From Gammaproteobacteria bacterium (lineage in GTDB: Bacteria; Pseudomonadota; Gammaproteobacteria; JBNLBB01): 60,590 nt of DNA. How positions within the stretch are numbered: position 1 is the stretch's first letter; every line of letters begins with the position of its first letter. A program made the translations under genes and the position numbers. Below are positions 7,063 through 19,614 of the stretch, piece by piece. The notes beneath the pieces are model-generated. The model was given only the letters and a program-made list of their open reading frames with translations, did no database searches and was not told where the DNA came from. The stretch covers positions 1 to 60,590 of the forward strand of contig JBNLBB010000001.1 of the NCBI GenBank assembly GCA_050302415.1, in the 5' to 3' direction.

Positions 7063-7092
7063 CAAAAAAAAAGAGGGGCCAACGGCCCCTCT
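7063..7092 (-). terminator. Rho-independent terminator downstream of fccB
   Basis: Perfect 9-bp stem AGAGGGGCC / GGCCCCTCT with a 3-nt loop. On the minus strand it is followed by a run of nine T. It lies 27 nt after the fccB stop. Confidence 0.85.
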
Positions 7093-7118: not shown

Positions 7119-8423
7119 TCAGCCGAAGATGTCATTGGTAATATTGTTGAACCAGCTGTGGGCGTAACCCACTTCGCGGCGGCGATGTTCCGGACTGGCA
7201 TCCATGGGGGTCAGACCACCGGCTCCGGCAACTCCGGCAATGGCATCCTTCTCCGCGTTATACCGGTAGACCGCAGCCACGGAAATACCCCAGTCGTCAC
7301 CGACGATGCTGTAGCAGGTATTGATGTAGGACGGCGTACCCGGTTCCATGCCGTTGAGCATTGCGACGATGGCCGCTGCGCACACCTTGGCCTGGGAATT
7401 GGCGGAATATCCGGACTTGGGCATGGCGGTGGCCACACTTGCGTCACCCAGTACATGGATATTGGGCACCACCTTGGATTCGAAGGTGGTTTTGTTCACA
7501 GCGCACCAGTCACTGTCACCGGTAAGGCCGGCACCAAAAGCGATGGCACCCGCCTTCTGCGCCGGGATGATGTTCAACACATCAGCCTTCACCACGTCGC
7601 CGAATTCGGTGGTTACCGTACGGGTCTTGGCGTCGACTTTGACCACCCGACTGTCCGGACCCGGACGCCACTCGATCAGGCTGTTCGGCGTGTCATATCC
7701 ATACAGTGCTTTCCAGCCCTGCATAAACAGGCCCTGTTTTGAGAACTTCTGCTTCGCATCCAGGATAAGCACCTTGGATTTGGGTTTGTGCTTCTGCAGG
7801 TAGCTAGCGATCAGACTCGCCCGCTCATAGGGCCCGGGAGGACAACGGAACGGGTTGGGGGGCGGTGCGATGACCACGGTACCGCCATCATGCATCGCTT
7901 CGAGTTGGGCCCGTAGGGTGGCGGTCTGCGGACCAGCCTGCCAGGCATGCGGGATATCCTTGGCCACATTGGCATCGAGCCCTTCCACGGTTTCCCACTT
8001 GAAGTCGATGCCGGGGGCAACCACGCAGCGGTCGTAGCTGAATTTGTTGCCACCGGAGGTGGTCACGGTCCGTGCATTGGCATCGATACCGGTTACCGAC
8101 TCCGACACCACGTTCACACCGTGCTTCTTCAGGCCCTCGTAACCGAATCCGATGCTGTCCAGTTTACGGTCACCACCGATCACCTCGTTGCTCATGAAAC
8201 AGGTGTGATACTTCGCCTTCGGCTCGATCACCGTAACGTCGATGGACGGATCGGCCATCTTCAAGTACTTGGCAGTTGTGGTACCACCAATACCGCCACC
8301 GACCACTACCACCTTTTTCTTCATGTGTTTGGCAGCAAAACTTAGGGACGGGAGACCGGCCAGACCCACAGCCCCGGCAGCGCCTGAGGCTTTCAGAAAA
8401 TTTCTTCGCGTAAAATTCGCCAT
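7119..8423 (-). CDS. fccB: Flavocytochrome c sulfide dehydrogenase, flavoprotein subunit (FccB/SoxF type)
   Basis: 434-aa ORF with a Tat signal ([26 protein letters not shown]) and FAD fingerprint [10 protein letters not shown]. It sits immediately downstream of a dihaem cytochrome c gene. Confidence 0.85.
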
Positions 8424-8442: not shown

Positions 8443-9114
8443 CTACTTCTGGCTGGCGTAGTAATGAGCCAGTGCTTTCAGGTCGTCGGCGCTGAGCTTC
8501 TTCATCTTCGCCGCCATTTTCTTGGGCATCTTGCGGTGTTTGGCCGCAAAATCGTCAAGGGAATTCTGGACATACGGCATCCACTGACCTGCCAACAGTC
8601 CGACATCATCTTCACTGCTGCGACCGCCATCTTCATGGCACTTTTCACAGTGATTGTCGTGCAACCGGCGCCCTTTTTTCACCAGCGCCGAATCAGTGCT
8701 CTGGGCATGACGGATAAACTGTTTGCCGGCAAAGTATTCGGCCATGCTGGCGATCTCTTCGTCGGTGTATCCCTTCGCAATCCGGCTCATAATGGTGCTG
8801 GATCGCGGCAGCGCTTCGAATTCATCATCCGACAGCGGCATTTGGCTGACCGCCTTGGTGATGGCTTCTTCGTCGTCACCATATTTGTAGGCCATCATCG
8901 CAGCGATGAAATAGCCGCGTGACAGACCTGCAATGCCGGGCGTGGCAGGTCCCTGGCTGTTGCCTCCCGTACCGTGACAACCGGCACAGGTGTTGGACAA
9001 CATTTCCGAAGTGGCACCGGCGGCGTTCGCTGGCGCCGACAGGCCGATCATCGCCGTACTGGCTACCGCCAGACCGGCCACAACAAGCGCTTGTCGCAGT
9101 CTCTTGTACCCCAT
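8443..9114 (-). CDS. fccA: Flavocytochrome c sulfide dehydrogenase, dihaem cytochrome c subunit
   Basis: Two CxxCH motifs (CAGCH, CEKCH) and a Sec signal (...GLSAPANA). I place the start at the ATG at 9114, which is preceded by AGGGAGAAG, not at the ORF-track start 9168. Confidence 0.8.
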
Positions 9115-9244
9115 GACTTCTCCCTCTTGTTCTACCTCATTACGAGGCATTGACATTTTTAACATCAATCCGGACAGGTTTTGGAATCCCCCTGGACCGA
9201 TAGGAATTGCCGCTGTGTGACAACGCGCGGCGCCGTTGATCTAG

Positions 9245-9260
9245 TGCAACCCGCGTGCCA
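9245..9260 (-). promoter_or_regulatory. Candidate sigma-54 (-24/-12) promoter for fccAB
   Basis: The minus strand reads TGGCACGCGGGTTGCA (TGGCAC-N5-TTGCA) with canonical GG/GC spacing, about 130 nt upstream of the fccA ATG. Confidence 0.6.
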
Positions 9261-9330: not shown

Positions 9331-9376
9331 CACTTTCTGCCAAACCTGCCTTCCGCACATGAAATGGCAGAAAGTG
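9331..9376 (-). promoter_or_regulatory. Perfect 11-bp inverted repeat: candidate enhancer (UAS) for the sigma-54 promoter, or a hairpin after the napC-like gene
   Basis: CACTTTCTGCC-N24-GGCAGAAAGTG. It lies 70-115 nt upstream of the -24 element and 6 nt after the stop of the tetrahaem cytochrome gene. No U-tract follows. Confidence 0.45.
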
Positions 9377-9381
9377 TCGTG

Positions 9382-9972
9382 TCAGGAATTGTCCGCCACG
9401 GACTCCTCTGGCGGATCCGGGACTTCGTGTGCCACCCCTCTGTGGCACTCGACGCAGGTTTGATTCTCTTCCACCGCACCCTTGTGCTTGCGCCGGGCCA
9501 AGCGGGCCTGGGATTCAAGCTCCATCGCGGTGAAGGAGTGACAGCTGCGGCAGGTGGCGGAATCGGTCCGCTCCATGAACCGCCAGACGCGGTTGGCCAT
9601 CTCCCACCGTTTGGCGGCAAATTTCTCCGGGGTATCCACGGTACCTATCAGGGTGTGCCAGACATCCTTGACGGCAATGACTTTGGCCACCAGTTTCGGA
9701 CCGAATGCTTTGGGAACATGGCAGTCGGGGCAACCGGCTCGAACACCCGATTTATTCACATAATGCAGTGACTCCTGGTACTCGGGATACATCGTATCCT
9801 TCATTTCATGACAGGAGATGCAGAACTCCATCGTGTCTGTCACGCCGATGAGTTTGACCGCCCCGCCAAACAGCAGCAGCACCGTGACCCCACCCACCAC
9901 CAGAAGGCTACCGACGGACCACTTGCCACTGGGTGTTCTCAGCCCGTTCCAGAGGCACCGAAATATGTTCAT
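9382..9972 (-). CDS. NapC/NirT/CymA-family membrane-anchored tetrahaem cytochrome c (quinol dehydrogenase type)
   Basis: 196-aa ORF with an N-terminal TM anchor and four CxxCH motifs (CISCH, CPDCH, CRSCH, CVECH), in the spacing and size typical of NapC/NirT. Confidence 0.8.
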   Translation of the reverse strand: MNIFRCLWNGLRTPSGKWSVGSLLVVGGVTVLLLFGGAVKLIGVTDTMEFCISCHEMKDTMYPEYQESLHYVNKSGVRAGCPDCHVPKAFGPKLVAKVIAVKDVWHTLIGTVDTPEKFAAKRWEMANRVWRFMERTDSATCRSCHSFTAMELESQARLARRKHKGAVEENQTCVECHRGVAHEVPDPPEESVADNS

Positions 9973-10173
9973 CTACTCCCCCATCGAAACCATATTTTTT
10001 GGACCTCTTGCTCTCCACCCTGACAATCTTCTTGCAGGGTGACTGCGGAGCTGAAGACCGGTGCATTACCCTACGCCTGTTGCACCAAATTTTCAGCACA
10101 GAGTACAGGTCCGGCGCGGTCGATGTTATATTTACTTAGGGATATCCCGAATAAGCGTGGTGAGGAGAGATTA

Positions 10174-10470
10174 GTGCGTTTGATCACTTTGTCGACTGGA
10201 GTGCAGACCGCCTTCGGCGCAGCACTGTTTCTCATCTCGAGCCTGTGCGCCGCCCAAAGCAGCCAGCCAGGCACGGAAAAGAACCTGACCATACCGCACC
10301 GCGGTGAATCCATGATGTCGGTTGAAAACCGTTTCGGGACCCCCACCGACAAGCTTGCCCCCATCGGCGAACCTCCCATCGCTCGTTGGGTGTACCCCGA
10401 ATTTACGGTCTATTTCGAGTACCAGTACGTCATCAATTACGTACCTCACGATAAGTACGGCAGTCGCTAG
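10174..10470 (+). CDS. Small secreted hypothetical protein
   Basis: GTG start preceded by GAGGAGAG. It has a signal peptide (...ALFLISSLCAAQS). I chose this shorter start over the 143-aa ORF-track version. Confidence 0.5.
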   Translation: MRLITLSTGVQTAFGAALFLISSLCAAQSSQPGTEKNLTIPHRGESMMSVENRFGTPTDKLAPIGEPPIARWVYPEFTVYFEYQYVINYVPHDKYGSR

Positions 10471-15747: not shown

Positions 15748-17946
15748 ATGAACACGCTGCACTCCACCACCAGGCGTGGCCACACCATTCGCGTGGTCTG
15801 GGGACCACAGCGGTTTTACCTGTCCATTGGCTGGAAAACGCTCATCGCCTTTTTCCTGGTTGTCTTTGTGCCCATGCTTGGCCTGATGCAAATCACAGGG
15901 AGCACCATCCGCGATGGCATGGAATCCGAAGCACTCAAATCCCTGGCTGTCAGTATGCGCGGGTCGTGGAGCATCTATTTTGAGCGCATCGACCGGTTGA
16001 CCAACGACTTTGAACTCTCCGCGACCGAACCCGGTCTCGCCGCGGCCATACAGTCCAGAAATGAAGATGCGTTGAGCACCCTGCTCAACCGGATATCCAC
16101 CCATCTTCCCTATGCCGATGTCCTGCTGCTGGTTGACCGGGACCGCAAAGTGATGGCCAGACGCTCTGGTCCGGCCGGCGACCGGGTGTACGTCAATAAC
16201 CTGATTACCCGGGCGGTGGAACGGGGACAGGCGGTCACCAGTTCGGAATTGCTGCCACGTGATCTCTTCCTCAATGAAGACCCGCTGCGCTACGGCGGTT
16301 TGAGCCAGTCAATCCTCGCGCAGGTATCGGTTGTGCCCATCAAGGATGGAGACGAGGTGACTGGCGCATTTCTGGGCCTCATTCTGCTCAATGGCAACGC
16401 CTGGCTCTCCAATTCGGTACACGACAACCTGAGTGTCGATGCCGCCATCTTCAGCTCCGTCGTCCAGGAGAGTCAGGTGATTTCGACGGCCTACCGGGTC
16501 AGCAATATCTGGGCGGAAGGGGTGATGGCGCCGGCCCCGCTGAATGCGGCGATCAAACGCCGCGAATCGTTCAGCGGTCATATCCGGGTCAACGACATCC
16601 CCAGTCTGGTGATCGCCGAACCCATCATGAACCACCAGAAACAGCCGATCGGCGCCCTGGCCCTGGGTGTGCGCGACGAACATATCGAGCTGCTGATCCA
16701 GCGGAACAAGAGCAACGTCTACTTGTTCATAGCCATTGGCATCGGGCTGTCGCTGATCATTGCCTACCTGGCCTATCGCGACACCGTCACCCCGATCCGC
16801 GCCATGGTGGAGGCCATGGATGCCTTCGCCAACAATCAACTGGGCGTGCGCACCGAAATCCGCACCAAGGACGAGTTCGAGCAGTTGGGCGATGGCTTCA
16901 ACCGGATGGCCGAATCGGTGGAAGAGCACCAGCAACGCATGGAGAAGTTCAATACCCTGTCGAGTCTGCTCATCTCCACCCTCAACCCACGGCAATTGCT
17001 GCAGAAGACCCTGGACAAGGTGGTGGAGCTCACCAAAGGCCGAGTCGGCGTCATCTATCTGCATGACAAGAACTCGGGCACCCTGCAGCCATTCGTCACC
17101 AACGGAATCGACATCAAAAAACTGCCGGCGCTGGATATCGGCGAAGGACTGCCCGGCCAGGCCGCAGAACAGAAACGCCTGTTGCGGATCGACGGCGTCG
17201 ACAGCGATACCCGCATTGTGATCAATTTCGGCATCGTCACTGCGGTACCCAAGGAGATTCTGGCGGCCCCTCTCGTCTTCAAGGATGAGCTGCTGGGCGT
17301 CATGCTGTTGGGCAGCACCCAGCAATTGCACGAAGACGAGCTTCCCGCCATTGAGTACATGACCAACCAGATTGCGATTGTGCTGGAAAACGCGCTGACG
17401 CACGAAAAGCTGGAGCTCTACTCCGTCACCGATGCGCTCACCGGGCTCTACAATCGCCGTTATCTGAGCCAGCGCCTGGATCACGAATTCTCCAAGGCGC
17501 AGCGCTACGGCTACGACCTGTCACTGATGATTCTGGACCTGGATCACTTCAAGAATATCAACGACAAGTTTGGGCATCTGGCCGGCGATTCGGTACTCAT
17601 TTCCGTGGCCCGGCTGCTGCGCAACTGTTTCCGGGAGACTGATCTGGTGGGACGCTACGGTGGTGAGGAGTTTTTTGTTATTCTGCCCCACACCAACCAG
17701 GAGCAGGCCAAGTATTCGGCTGAAAAACTGAGATCGCAACTGGCCGAACTGGCGATTGATGCCATCGGCGGTGGCGTCGTGACCACCTCAATCGGCGTCG
17801 CGAGTTTTCCGGAATCGGGCATTCACGTATTGGATGAACTGGTGCGCCGGGCCGACAACGCACTCTACGCAGCGAAGGAACAGGGGCGTAATTGTGTGGT
17901 GCAGGCCCAGGCACCGAGTCAGTCGACGGAACTCTCGTCTGCCTGA
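15748..17946 (+). CDS. Membrane sensor diguanylate cyclase (periplasmic sensor, HAMP, GAF, GGDEF)
   Basis: Two TMs flank a roughly 290-aa periplasmic domain, followed by a HAMP region, a GAF-like region and a GGDEF domain with an intact GGEEF and an RxxD I-site (RETD). The start is uncertain (15664-15748). Confidence 0.85.
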   Translation: MNTLHSTTRRGHTIRVVWGPQRFYLSIGWKTLIAFFLVVFVPMLGLMQITGSTIRDGMESEALKSLAVSMRGSWSIYFERIDRLTNDFELSATEPGLAAAIQSRNEDALSTLLNRISTHLPYADVLLLVDRDRKVMARRSGPAGDRVYVNNLITRAVERGQAVTSSELLPRDLFLNEDPLRYGGLSQSILAQVSVVPIKDGDEVTGAFLGLILLNGNAWLSNSVHDNLSVDAAIFSSVVQESQVISTAYRVSNIWAEGVMAPAPLNAAIKRRESFSGHIRVNDIPSLVIAEPIMNHQKQPIGALALGVRDEHIELLIQRNKSNVYLFIAIGIGLSLIIAYLAYRDTVTPIRAMVEAMDAFANNQLGVRTEIRTKDEFEQLGDGFNRMAESVEEHQQRMEKFNTLSSLLISTLNPRQLLQKTLDKVVELTKGRVGVIYLHDKNSGTLQPFVTNGIDIKKLPALDIGEGLPGQAAEQKRLLRIDGVDSDTRIVINFGIVTAVPKEILAAPLVFKDELLGVMLLGSTQQLHEDELPAIEYMTNQIAIVLENALTHEKLELYSVTDALTGLYNRRYLSQRLDHEFSKAQRYGYDLSLMILDLDHFKNINDKFGHLAGDSVLISVARLLRNCFRETDLVGRYGGEEFFVILPHTNQEQAKYSAEKLRSQLAELAIDAIGGGVVTTSIGVASFPESGIHVLDELVRRADNALYAAKEQGRNCVVQAQAPSQSTELSSA

Positions 17947-19310
17947 TTCCGCAATTTCTGCACGTAGCGGTAGAGCGTCCGCTCACTGATACCCAATTCG
18001 TGGGCAGTGCGGGCACGATGGCCTTTGTGCCGCGCCAGCGCCTGAAGAATCTGCTGTTCAGACTGGCGTGCACCGCGCCGGTGGATGAGATTGCGCTCCA
18101 CGCCGATTCCGGTTTTGACCATCGGTGCCTCCGCCTCATTGGGCTCAAACACCAAGTGGGTCACGTCCATGGCATCGCCCCCGGCAAGGATTACCGCGCG
18201 TTCCACGACATTGCGTAATTCGCGGACATTTCCCGGATAGTCATAACCCAACAGCTGTTCAATCAGATAGGGCGCCAGCGGCAGATGGCGGTCACCATCG
18301 TCCATGCGCGCAATGAAGTGTTCCGCCAGGGCCGGAATGTCATCCACCCTGTCACGCAGCGGCGGCACCTCCACGGGAAAAGCGGAGAGCCGGTAGTAGA
18401 GATCCTGCCGGAACTCCTTGCGGCGCGAGAGCGCGGCCAGATCCCGGTGGGTGGCGGCCACGATCCGCACGTTCACGCGGATGTATTCCGTGCCACCGAT
18501 GCGGCGGATGGTTCCGGATTCCAGGACCCGCAGCAGTTTGGTCTGGGCAGCCAGGGGCATTTCCCCGATTTCGTCGATAAACAGGGTCCCCTCGTTGGCC
18601 GCTTCAATCAGCCCCTTCTTGCGGCCGGCGGCGCCGGTAAATGCCCCCTTCTCGTACCCAAACAGCTCGCTCTCAATCAAATTGTGATCCAGTGAGGCGC
18701 AGTCGACGATCATGAACGGACCGTTGGACCGCCGGGAGTACTGGTGGAGATAGTTGGCCATGCACTCCTTGCCCACTCCACTCTCGCCCAACAGCAGCAC
18801 CGTGGTGGAGGTGGGCGCCACCCGCTGGAGCAGACTGATCATGCGGCGAAAGGCATGTGAGCGCCCGACCAGCTGCGGATCTTCGCCATCCGGTGCCTGA
18901 ATGGCATTGATGTACTCCCCCATATACATCACCTCGCCGGTGGCACCCAGCAGCGGATTGGCCTGTATCTGAACGTATTCGGGTTTGTCTTCCTTGTCGT
19001 AGTGGACGTGGATCAGCTGCACCGGTTGTCCTTTGGTGAACACCGCCTCCAGGGGGCAATGTTCGCCATGGTGATGGCAGGGAGATTCCGAATGGTGGCT
19101 TACCTCGTAGCAGTGGCGTCCGACCACGTCTTCGCCGGAGACCTGGTAGCGCTCCTTGTAGCTGCGGTTGGCGGCGATGATCCGGTATTCGCGGTCTATG
19201 ACCACGAAAGGATCAGGCATGATGTTGATGATTTGCTCGCAGGATGGCGCCTGCAGATGTGAACTCGTCACTGTCCCCTCCCCCGAAAATCCGTTCATAT
19301 GATACGTCAT
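17919..19310 (-). CDS. Sigma-54-dependent transcriptional activator (bEBP) with a Cys/His-rich PAS-like sensor domain
   Basis: Walker A GESGVGKE, the GAFTGA loop and a C-terminal Fis-type HTH are present. The sensor region contains RHCYEVSHHSESPCHHHGEHCPLE. I prefer the ATG at 19310 (AGGGAA upstream); the ORF track starts at 19376. Confidence 0.85.
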   Translation of the reverse strand: MTYHMNGFSGEGTVTSSHLQAPSCEQIINIMPDPFVVIDREYRIIAANRSYKERYQVSGEDVVGRHCYEVSHHSESPCHHHGEHCPLEAVFTKGQPVQLIHVHYDKEDKPEYVQIQANPLLGATGEVMYMGEYINAIQAPDGEDPQLVGRSHAFRRMISLLQRVAPTSTTVLLLGESGVGKECMANYLHQYSRRSNGPFMIVDCASLDHNLIESELFGYEKGAFTGAAGRKKGLIEAANEGTLFIDEIGEMPLAAQTKLLRVLESGTIRRIGGTEYIRVNVRIVAATHRDLAALSRRKEFRQDLYYRLSAFPVEVPPLRDRVDDIPALAEHFIARMDDGDRHLPLAPYLIEQLLGYDYPGNVRELRNVVERAVILAGGDAMDVTHLVFEPNEAEAPMVKTGIGVERNLIHRRGARQSEQQILQALARHKGHRARTAHELGISERTLYRYVQKLRNQADESSVD

Positions 19311-19614
19311 GACATTCCCTGTCACGACTGCCATCATGCCGTCTATCCCCGCTGCTGTCAAAATGGCTAACTGCATGGCAGTAAAGCGATTTGCCGCGGT
19401 CGGAACCCCTCCTTTCCACGGGTCGTCAGCCTGGTTTCACGGACCGCTGGAGGCTTGCTGCGCTGCTCCGTGCCAGCCCGGTCGGTAATAGACAGGACAT
19501 GCCGGTTGTGGATAATGGTCACCGTTTCAGCGTCCGGGCCAATCGACTTCCGGCTCCCAAGCCACTCTGTCACGGCCATCAATCCGAATCACAAGAATTT
19601 CGCGGAGGCTCCGC

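Follow-up and report, generated by a model that had tools for sequence, protein, structure and literature searches.

A 196-amino-acid membrane cytochrome of the NapC/NirT family, encoded directly upstream of the flavocytochrome c sulfide dehydrogenase genes fccA and fccB in a gammaproteobacterial metagenome-assembled genome (MAG; GCA_050302415.1), is on balance probably a dedicated membrane partner of FccAB, most likely carrying electrons from sulfide to ubiquinone. The stretch analysed, referred to below as the window, comprises the first 60,590 nucleotides of contig JBNLBB010000001.1 (C1). Comparative genomics and published expression data support this interpretation, and from them we infer contact between FccA and the cytochrome, reduction of quinone and the direction of electron flow. 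Decades of work on flavocytochrome c sulfide dehydrogenase have, to our knowledge, left its electron acceptor and its role in vivo unclear. The arrangement itself is already known from the model genome of Allochromatium vinosum, where the genes are co-induced. New here are a clade test, a quantified distribution, a signature in the quinone pocket, genomes in which the gene is the sole paralogue and ubiquinone seemingly the only quinone, and a variant of the locus that has an internal sigma-54 promoter and lacks an ankyrin gene.

Conservation of the association with fccAB

When 80 NapC/NirT loci, one genome per GTDB species, were classed by their neighbours with tblastn, 36 were associated with Nap, 14 with NirS, five with MtrA-type genes, eight with a conserved dihaem partner of 245 amino acids and 15 with FccAB, eight having none of these, in counts that also take in contigs fetched earlier and the paralogues of the MAG itself. 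The adjacency to fccAB recurs in Inmirania, two MAG or metagenome contigs, Burkholderiales, Chromatiales, Sedimenticolaceae, animal symbionts and one member of the Rhodospirillaceae. On a careful maximum-likelihood tree, 14 of the 15 FccAB-linked proteins fall into a single clade (support 100/97) that contains the window protein and is separate from the Nap-, NirS- and Mtr-linked relatives; the other two of its 16 rows are a protein whose locus is truncated and a protein encoded behind an fccB fragment in a Rhodospirillaceae MAG. The clade ranges over Chromatiaceae, Sedimenticolaceae, tubeworm and clam symbionts, Burkholderiales and one alphaproteobacterium, and the order napC-like gene, (ankyrin gene), fccA, fccB recurs in these distant lineages amid different flanking genes. 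The three closest relatives with usable contigs (a JGI metagenome contig, the 'Kow006' gammaproteobacterial MAG and Inmirania thermothiophila) likewise have cytochrome gene, fccA and fccB in this order, with a gap of 220-290 bp. Taken alone, these three could reflect common descent, because wider synteny (aguA, sfsA, lolE) is shared.

A broader survey, of the kind that an earlier sequence-only reading of this DNA had named as a check on its proposal of a dedicated wire between FccAB and the quinone pool, likewise finds the adjacency conserved. Among 400 genomes drawn evenly from the window's class and searched with FccB and the cytochrome, FccB is present in 108, the window's own genome not counted, and 24 of these, spread over 18 families, have a cytochrome homologue on the same strand at a distance of no more than 8 kb (upstream in 22 of the 24). 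Arranged by FccB identity, the linked fraction is 9 of 13 at 65% or more, 8 of 23 at 60-65% and about zero below 55%. Across forty fetched contexts the main layouts are cytochrome-fccA-fccB and cytochrome-ankyrin-fccA-fccB, and a cytochrome gene of the FccAB clade hardly ever occurs without an FccA-type gene close by. The ankyrin-repeat gene, which encodes a secreted protein of about 313 amino acids and lies between the cytochrome gene and fccA in roughly half of the linked loci, may supply a scaffold; the window's MAG yielded no such gene.

Published expression data come from A. vinosum, in which the genes Alvin_1092-1095 resemble the window in having a NapC/NirT tetrahaem gene on the fccA side of fccAB, Alvin_1095 being likened to the window protein by annotation, haem positions and gene order, not by sequence. 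With pyrite as compared with sulfide, Alvin_1092 (FccB) rises 72-fold, Alvin_1093 (FccA) 175-fold, Alvin_1094 (an ankyrin protein of 320 amino acids with a signal peptide) 28-fold and Alvin_1095 (NapC/NirT) 42-fold, and the flanking genes Alvin_1091 and Alvin_1096 are unchanged (PMC11267869). A second column of the same table, for a comparison unlabelled here, gives 4.5 for Alvin_1093, 2.6 for Alvin_1094, 9.6 for Alvin_1095 and no value for Alvin_1092 (PMC11267869). The four genes thus behave as one regulon in A. vinosum; in the words of the authors, the function of Alvin_1095 "has not been resolved" (PMC11267869). One label in the main table of that paper (Table 1) is apparently an annotation slip. 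Thiohalocapsa, of the Chromatiaceae, has the napC-ankyrin-fccAB order of A. vinosum (L076) and a protein that falls inside the window clade. In the window, unlike in A. vinosum, a sigma-54 promoter and not an ankyrin gene separates the cytochrome gene from fccA. Berben et al. (2019), comparing four reference organisms, saw no conserved gene neighbourhood around fccAB (PMC6382920), and no paper describing or testing a link between NapC/NirT proteins and FccAB was found in a search that left most subscription journals outside its coverage, so that a mention elsewhere is possible.

Identity of the cytochrome and its quinone site

The sequence-only reading had placed a membrane-anchored tetrahaem cytochrome upstream of fccA on the same strand, and this is confirmed, coordinates included. 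The protein carries the haem motifs CISCH, CPDCH, CRSCH and CVECH at residues 51, 81, 141 and 173, and its most hydrophobic 19-residue stretch spans residues 24-42 (mean Kyte-Doolittle value 2.26); it is predicted to have one N-terminal membrane helix, with the haems in the periplasm. The four CxxCH motifs and single N-terminal transmembrane stretch are those of the NapC/NirT family, whose profile (PF03264) matches with 219.9 bits against a cut-off of 24.1, residues 15-186 corresponding to profile positions 3-173/174. The best match among 5.8 billion database proteins is just 65% identical.

Narrower assignments were tried and rejected. For true NapC/NirT proteins, the napC_nirT subfamily model (NCBIfam TIGR02161) gives 232.5 against a cut-off of 310.6. 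For NapC proper, the equivalog NF007906 gives 216.1 against 349, the window contig lacks nap genes, and Nap-linked proteins sit in other clades. NirT, the partner of cd1 nitrite reductase, is rejected in that NirS was not found anywhere in the MAG and that the NirS-linked clade stands apart on a quick tree, with 96-99 in the Shimodaira-Hasegawa-like approximate likelihood-ratio test (SH-aLRT), and is again distinct on the careful one. For the pentahaem proteins TorC/DorC the score is 232.6 against 478.2, and the window protein has 196 amino acids and four haem motifs as against about 390 amino acids and a fifth haem domain. By these profile and tree comparisons, the cytochrome is not NapC, NirT or TorC. 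NapC (E. coli, Paracoccus) and NirT (Stutzerimonas stutzeri) do share with it the family, the size, four CxxCH motifs, one transmembrane segment, the CxxCHxM motif and the lysine discussed below, at 45-54% identity. The window protein differs from them in having alanine, aspartate and serine in place of invariant arginine, glutamate and asparagine, in its clade, and in lacking nap or nirS neighbours.

These substitutions mark the clade as a whole. In a signature defined within this analysis, by comparison of 16 core-clade proteins with 65 other NapC/NirT proteins, the core clade has alanine (88%) at position 96, aspartate (100%) at 103 and serine (88%) at 143, where all 65 of the others have arginine, glutamate and asparagine, respectively. 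At positions 90, 96, 97, 103, 123 and 143 the window protein reads F-A-K-D-W-S. Among 85 relatives, Met57 and Lys97 are at least 95% conserved, and Met57, Lys97 and Asp103 align with the methionine of the CxxCHxM motif, the lysine and the aspartate of NrfH, as is to be expected of a haem-1 pocket; positions 96 and 103 are next to, or identical with, the residues that pair with the lysine and aspartate of NrfH in the alignment. We take these NrfH counterparts to be Met49, Lys82 and Asp89, residues of the quinol-site lining. NrfH of Desulfovibrio vulgaris (PDB 2J7A, 2VR0) is the only solved relative found (E = 1.3e-5), and it is unlike the window protein in being distant, 159 amino acids long, a menaquinol dehydrogenase and bound to NrfA.

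The signature holds in an independent set, all 20 fccAB-linked genes of the class sample having Ala96 and Asp103 and a NirS-linked gene having arginine, glutamate and asparagine. Given that 78 of the 119 best database homologues carry Ala-Asp-Ser at 96/103/143, the subfamily is large, and Ala96/Asp103 provides a simple mark by which it can be recognised. The signature may well represent a remodelled quinone site, with possible consequences for potential, direction of flow and quinone specificity. Elsewhere, a nirS gene (L135; G076:C49, 5387-10171) lies between two NapC/NirT-type genes, one with Arg/Glu/Asn and the other with Arg/Asp/Ser.

Other reductases and other NapC-like genes

With tblastn, NapA, NapB, NapG, NapH and NirS gave no match on the window contig. 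The claim of the sequence-only reading that nap and nir partners are absent from the window therefore stands directly, and its extension to tor and dms indirectly, the NapA query matching molybdoenzymes on other contigs and none on C1. Its term "orphan" survives as far as nap and nir genes on C1 are concerned and calls for caution with regard to the genome, since the same MAG (74% complete, in 347 contigs) has a nap operon cut by a contig end: napF-(napD)-napA-napG on C147 (32-4110), with napH, napB and napC outside the assembly. In principle, then, the adjacency to fccAB could be functionally meaningless, with the cytochrome acting as the quinol dehydrogenase of this periplasmic nitrate reductase or of another reductase, a reading to which the truncated operon and the incomplete MAG lend themselves, and to which the C338 fragment, resembling the C63 paralogue and not a Nap-type NapC, offers no competitor. 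Such a role is nevertheless very improbable, as the window protein lies outside the Nap-linked clade, falls well short of the NapC equivalog cut-off, carries the FccAB-clade signature and has fccAB-linked orthologues in genomes without NapA or NirS.

The last point rests on five complete or near-complete small genomes with the cluster (G052, G316, G253, G149 and G399), in each of which the fccAB-linked gene is the sole PF03264 member. No NapA orthologue was found in these five, the best matches being pieces of other molybdoenzymes at 34% identity or less, and no cd1 NirS. The same genomes, together with the placement of the protein in a clade of its own, give no sign of service for another reductase, which the sequence-only reading had named as one of the results that would refute its proposal. 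Nor do the five have a MenD above cut-off or MqnA, and likewise neither was found in the window's MAG at its 74% completeness; the five genomes probably make ubiquinone only. Because neither menaquinone pathway was found, the quinone partner is most likely ubiquinone.

The MAG has three further NapC-like paralogues, on C112, on C63 and, as a fragment, on C338. Contig C112 (L006, 1353-8370) carries a complete extracellular-electron-transfer module, comprising an OmcA/MtrC decahaem protein (475 bits), a DmsE/MtrA decahaem protein (298) and MtrB/PioB (400); divergent from these Mtr genes are a PdsA-like dihaem gene (180 bits, below cut-off; 33% identical to the window FccA) and a NapC-like gene. 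On C63 (L005, 9356-10708) a gene for a 245-amino-acid dihaem cytochrome is followed by a NapC-like gene, a pair that recurs in Alphaproteobacteria, Thauera and Sedimenticola (L024, L034, L041, L049, L080, L086), most of the NapC-like proteins concerned grouping with the C63 paralogue in a separate clade (97 SH-aLRT, quick tree). The C338 fragment was considered as the missing napC of C147 and ruled out, being 70% identical to the C63 paralogue. Each module of the MAG seems to have a NapC-like gene of its own, as would be expected if the window copy has a dedicated role, and the proximity of FccA-family dihaem genes to NapC-like genes in other modules (for example on C112, with MtrCAB) supports the partnership. 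A second fccAB pair on C19 (16135-17683), with an FccB 46-48% identical to the window copy, is without a NapC-like neighbour.

Whether FccAB is the only client of the cytochrome has also to be weighed, for the protein might be a general hub in the manner of CymA, serving several dihaem cytochromes of the FccA/PdsA type, with a shared dihaem partner accounting for the adjacency. Some clusters do have the dihaem gene and no fccB: in L134, L136 and L141 a cytochrome-ankyrin pair converges with a dihaem gene of the FccA kind, and fccB is absent from the surroundings, and the genome G353 has a napC-ankyrin-dihaem locus in addition to two separate fccAB loci. One locus (L138; G067:C38, 5882-9421) unites a NapC-like gene, fccA (48% identity), a divergent gene for an FccB-like flavoprotein (38%) and an MtrA-like decahaem gene; a gene for a 610-amino-acid trihaem protein lies upstream. 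A hub is distinctly unlikely all the same, in that the gene is directly beside fccAB in most cases, that the other dihaem modules of the MAG come with NapC-like paralogues of their own, and that the sole copy stands at fccAB in the five complete genomes.

Direction of electron flow

In the route proposed for the dedicated partner, FccB would oxidise sulfide at its flavin adenine dinucleotide, electrons would pass from FccB to the two haems of FccA and then to the four haems of the cytochrome, and the haem-1 pocket of the cytochrome would reduce ubiquinone. FccB, FccA and the cytochrome together would then form a periplasmic sulfide:quinone oxidoreductase, for which the HAO-c554-cM552 system may be the closest analogy. 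Flow towards ubiquinone is favoured because the clade occurs in seemingly ubiquinone-only genomes, because its pocket is unlike that of quinol-oxidising relatives and because cM552 sets a precedent, a quinone-reducing member of the family having been described in the HAO-c554-cM552 hydroxylamine:ubiquinone module (PMC3701875). The cM552 (CycB) module, like the window, combines a periplasmic dehydrogenase, a soluble multihaem or dihaem cytochrome and a membrane tetrahaem protein of the NapC/NrfH family; substrate and partners differ, and the two are likened by architecture, not by sequence. At the gene level, the window does have the architecture of the hydroxylamine:ubiquinone redox module, in which dehydrogenase, c-type shuttle and NapC/NrfH-type cytochrome are encoded together. 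No clear cycB of the ammonia-oxidiser kind turned up in the genomes searched. A search for the c554 family (PF13435) across the class returned mostly multihaem proteins of about 440 amino acids, along with one pair (L143; G195:C27, 1501-2699) in which a c554-like gene is followed by a 194-amino-acid NapC/NrfH-like tetrahaem gene, with histidine and glutamate at the lysine and aspartate positions; no hao gene was seen near this pair within the 3.2-kb stretch.

Electrons could instead flow in reverse, the cytochrome oxidising quinol and reducing FccA, which would serve as a shuttle to oxidases or reductases and bypass bc1, or FccAB would run backwards on polysulfide or sulfur. Precedent of this kind is provided by the biochemically studied close relatives, all of them quinol dehydrogenases, ImoA included, and the napC-ankyrin-dihaem clusters without fccB would suit it, as would the dihaem/NapC-like pairs elsewhere in the MAG (C63, C112). 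CymA of Shewanella and ImoA/CymA-ES1 of the Sideroxydans Mto cluster are, like the window protein, membrane tetrahaem members of the NapC/NirT family, and CymA and ImoA have soluble cytochromes of the periplasm as their partners in electron exchange. With ImoA, too, the direction of flow is a matter of debate. The Mtr- and Mto-linked relatives belong to another clade than the window protein, and the MAG has its own such paralogue on C112. In the five complete genomes without menaquinone pathways, however, the donor would be ubiquinol, a poor reductant for FccA-type haems: ubiquinol lies at about +100 mV and such haems near 0 to +100 mV. Further, the Arg-to-Ala and Glu-to-Asp changes in the pocket set the clade apart from its quinol-oxidising relatives. 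Reversed flow is accordingly unlikely.

Several considerations weigh against a dedicated, quinone-reducing partner. The direction of flow is the weakest link of the argument; the characterised proteins NapC, CymA and ImoA oxidise quinol, and ImoA had been predicted to reduce quinone. Many fccAB loci lack the cytochrome gene despite ample flanks (L094-L098, L101, L103, L106-L112), contig breaks explaining several other loci that appear unlinked (L093, L099, L100, L102, L104, L105), and linked and unlinked FccB are intermixed on the FccB tree (15 changes, no fewer than for shuffled labels). Consequently, FccAB does not need the cytochrome as a partner, and a distinct "NapC-dependent" lineage of FccB is ruled out by this intermixing. 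The cytochrome-ankyrin pairs with a dihaem gene and no fccB also count against the proposed partnership, as do the incompleteness of the MAG and its nap operon without a visible napC. Mutants of A. vinosum that lack fccAB are without a phenotype and consume sulfide as fast as the wild type (PMC3368242), and any such route is therefore redundant in that organism. Lastly, a promoter appears to split the cytochrome gene and fccAB into two units in the window, making co-expression here a prediction.

Gene order and regulation

The cytochrome gene precedes fccA and fccB at a distance of 213-267 bp from fccA (Table 1). The window FccA is 52-72% identical to the FccA that adjoins FccB at related loci and is homologous to PdsA-type dihaem shuttles (117 bits, under cut-off); with an exported flavoprotein of the sulfide dehydrogenase type, bearing a twin-arginine translocation signal, adjoining a dihaem cytochrome c, the pair has the make-up of FccAB.

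Table 1. Coordinates of the features discussed; positions are those of the window except for the ankyrin-repeat gene, which is found at related loci
Feature	Position	Strand	Basis or remark
NapC/NirT-family membrane tetrahaem cytochrome, FccAB-associated clade	9382..9972	-	196 amino acids, ATG start; open reading frame list, PF03264, tree, pocket signature
fccA, dihaem cytochrome c subunit, signal peptide	8443..9168	-	open reading frame from TTG 9168; likely start ATG 9114 behind GGAG; CAGCH and CEKCH
fccB, flavoprotein subunit of flavocytochrome c sulfide dehydrogenase	7119..8423	-	FCSD_central, FCSD-flav_bind: PF21706 178 bits, PF09242 102 bits; TAT_signal
Predicted sigma-54 promoter TGGCACGCGGGTTGCA before fccA	9245..9260	-	sole zero-mismatch TGGCAC-N5-TTGCW in the 60.6-kb window
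11-bp inverted repeat ACTTTCTGCCA ... TGGCAGAAAGT	9332..9375	-	begins 7 nt past the napC-like stop codon; putative enhancer of the sigma-54 promoter
Predicted intrinsic terminator, 9-bp stem (7 GC pairs), T8	7072..7092	-	closes the napC-like/fccA/fccB block
Enhancer-binding protein, PAS + sigma-54 activator + HTH_8	17919..19376	-	Pfam; probable regulator of the fccAB promoter
Ankyrin-repeat gene	L033 6014-6955; L055 6626-7567; L020 6564-7529		also at eight class-sample loci

The sequence-only reading was right in seeing a sigma-54 promoter between the cytochrome gene and fccA, and one-mismatch sites occupy the equivalent gap in the closest relatives (L007 and Inmirania, L011). Between the two genes nothing resembling a terminator was found on the minus strand, and no sigma-54 promoter or sigma-70 consensus was found in the window 5' of the cytochrome gene; in a Burkholderiaceae MAG (L014), a one-mismatch sigma-54 site lies upstream of the cytochrome gene. 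The likely regulator has orthologues (52-61% identity) that directly adjoin the napC-fccAB block in Inmirania, G195, G044 and G164, and a related PAS/sigma-54 activator often stands alongside linked loci among the forty fetched contexts. In the window the cytochrome gene and fccAB are thus probably regulated separately. FccAB would be switched on from its own sigma-54 promoter, and the cytochrome gene would have a separate promoter and share its terminator with fccAB, read-through into fccAB being possible because no terminator-like site intervenes. A gene on the plus strand (10039-10470), pointing away from the cytochrome gene and preceding aguA, encodes a small secreted protein without a family match, a counterpart of which (98-137 amino acids) is kept in position in L007, L009 and Inmirania.

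Implications for sulfide oxidation

A dedicated partner could be the acceptor of FccAB, and the candidate described here is conserved in no fewer than 18 families and rises together with fccAB in A. vinosum. Only tentatively can the idea be carried further, to a membrane-docked sulfide:ubiquinone oxidoreductase made up of FccAB, the cytochrome and, in half of the lineages, the secreted ankyrin protein, in which a NapC/NirT cytochrome would work "backwards", enabled by the Arg-to-Ala and Glu-to-Asp changes. If true, this would give flavocytochrome c a defined physiological acceptor, would account for old reports of membrane-bound flavocytochrome c, and would explain why fccAB knockouts are silent where sulfide:quinone oxidoreductase (SQR) is present. 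The routine annotation of the gene as NapC, moreover, inflates the nitrate-reduction capacity inferred for sulfur oxidisers and symbionts. More broadly, if the cytochrome is the partner of FccAB, electrons from sulfide would enter at the level of quinone and not of cytochrome c, which would alter both the energy yield of sulfide oxidation and the cost of reverse electron flow in autotrophs.

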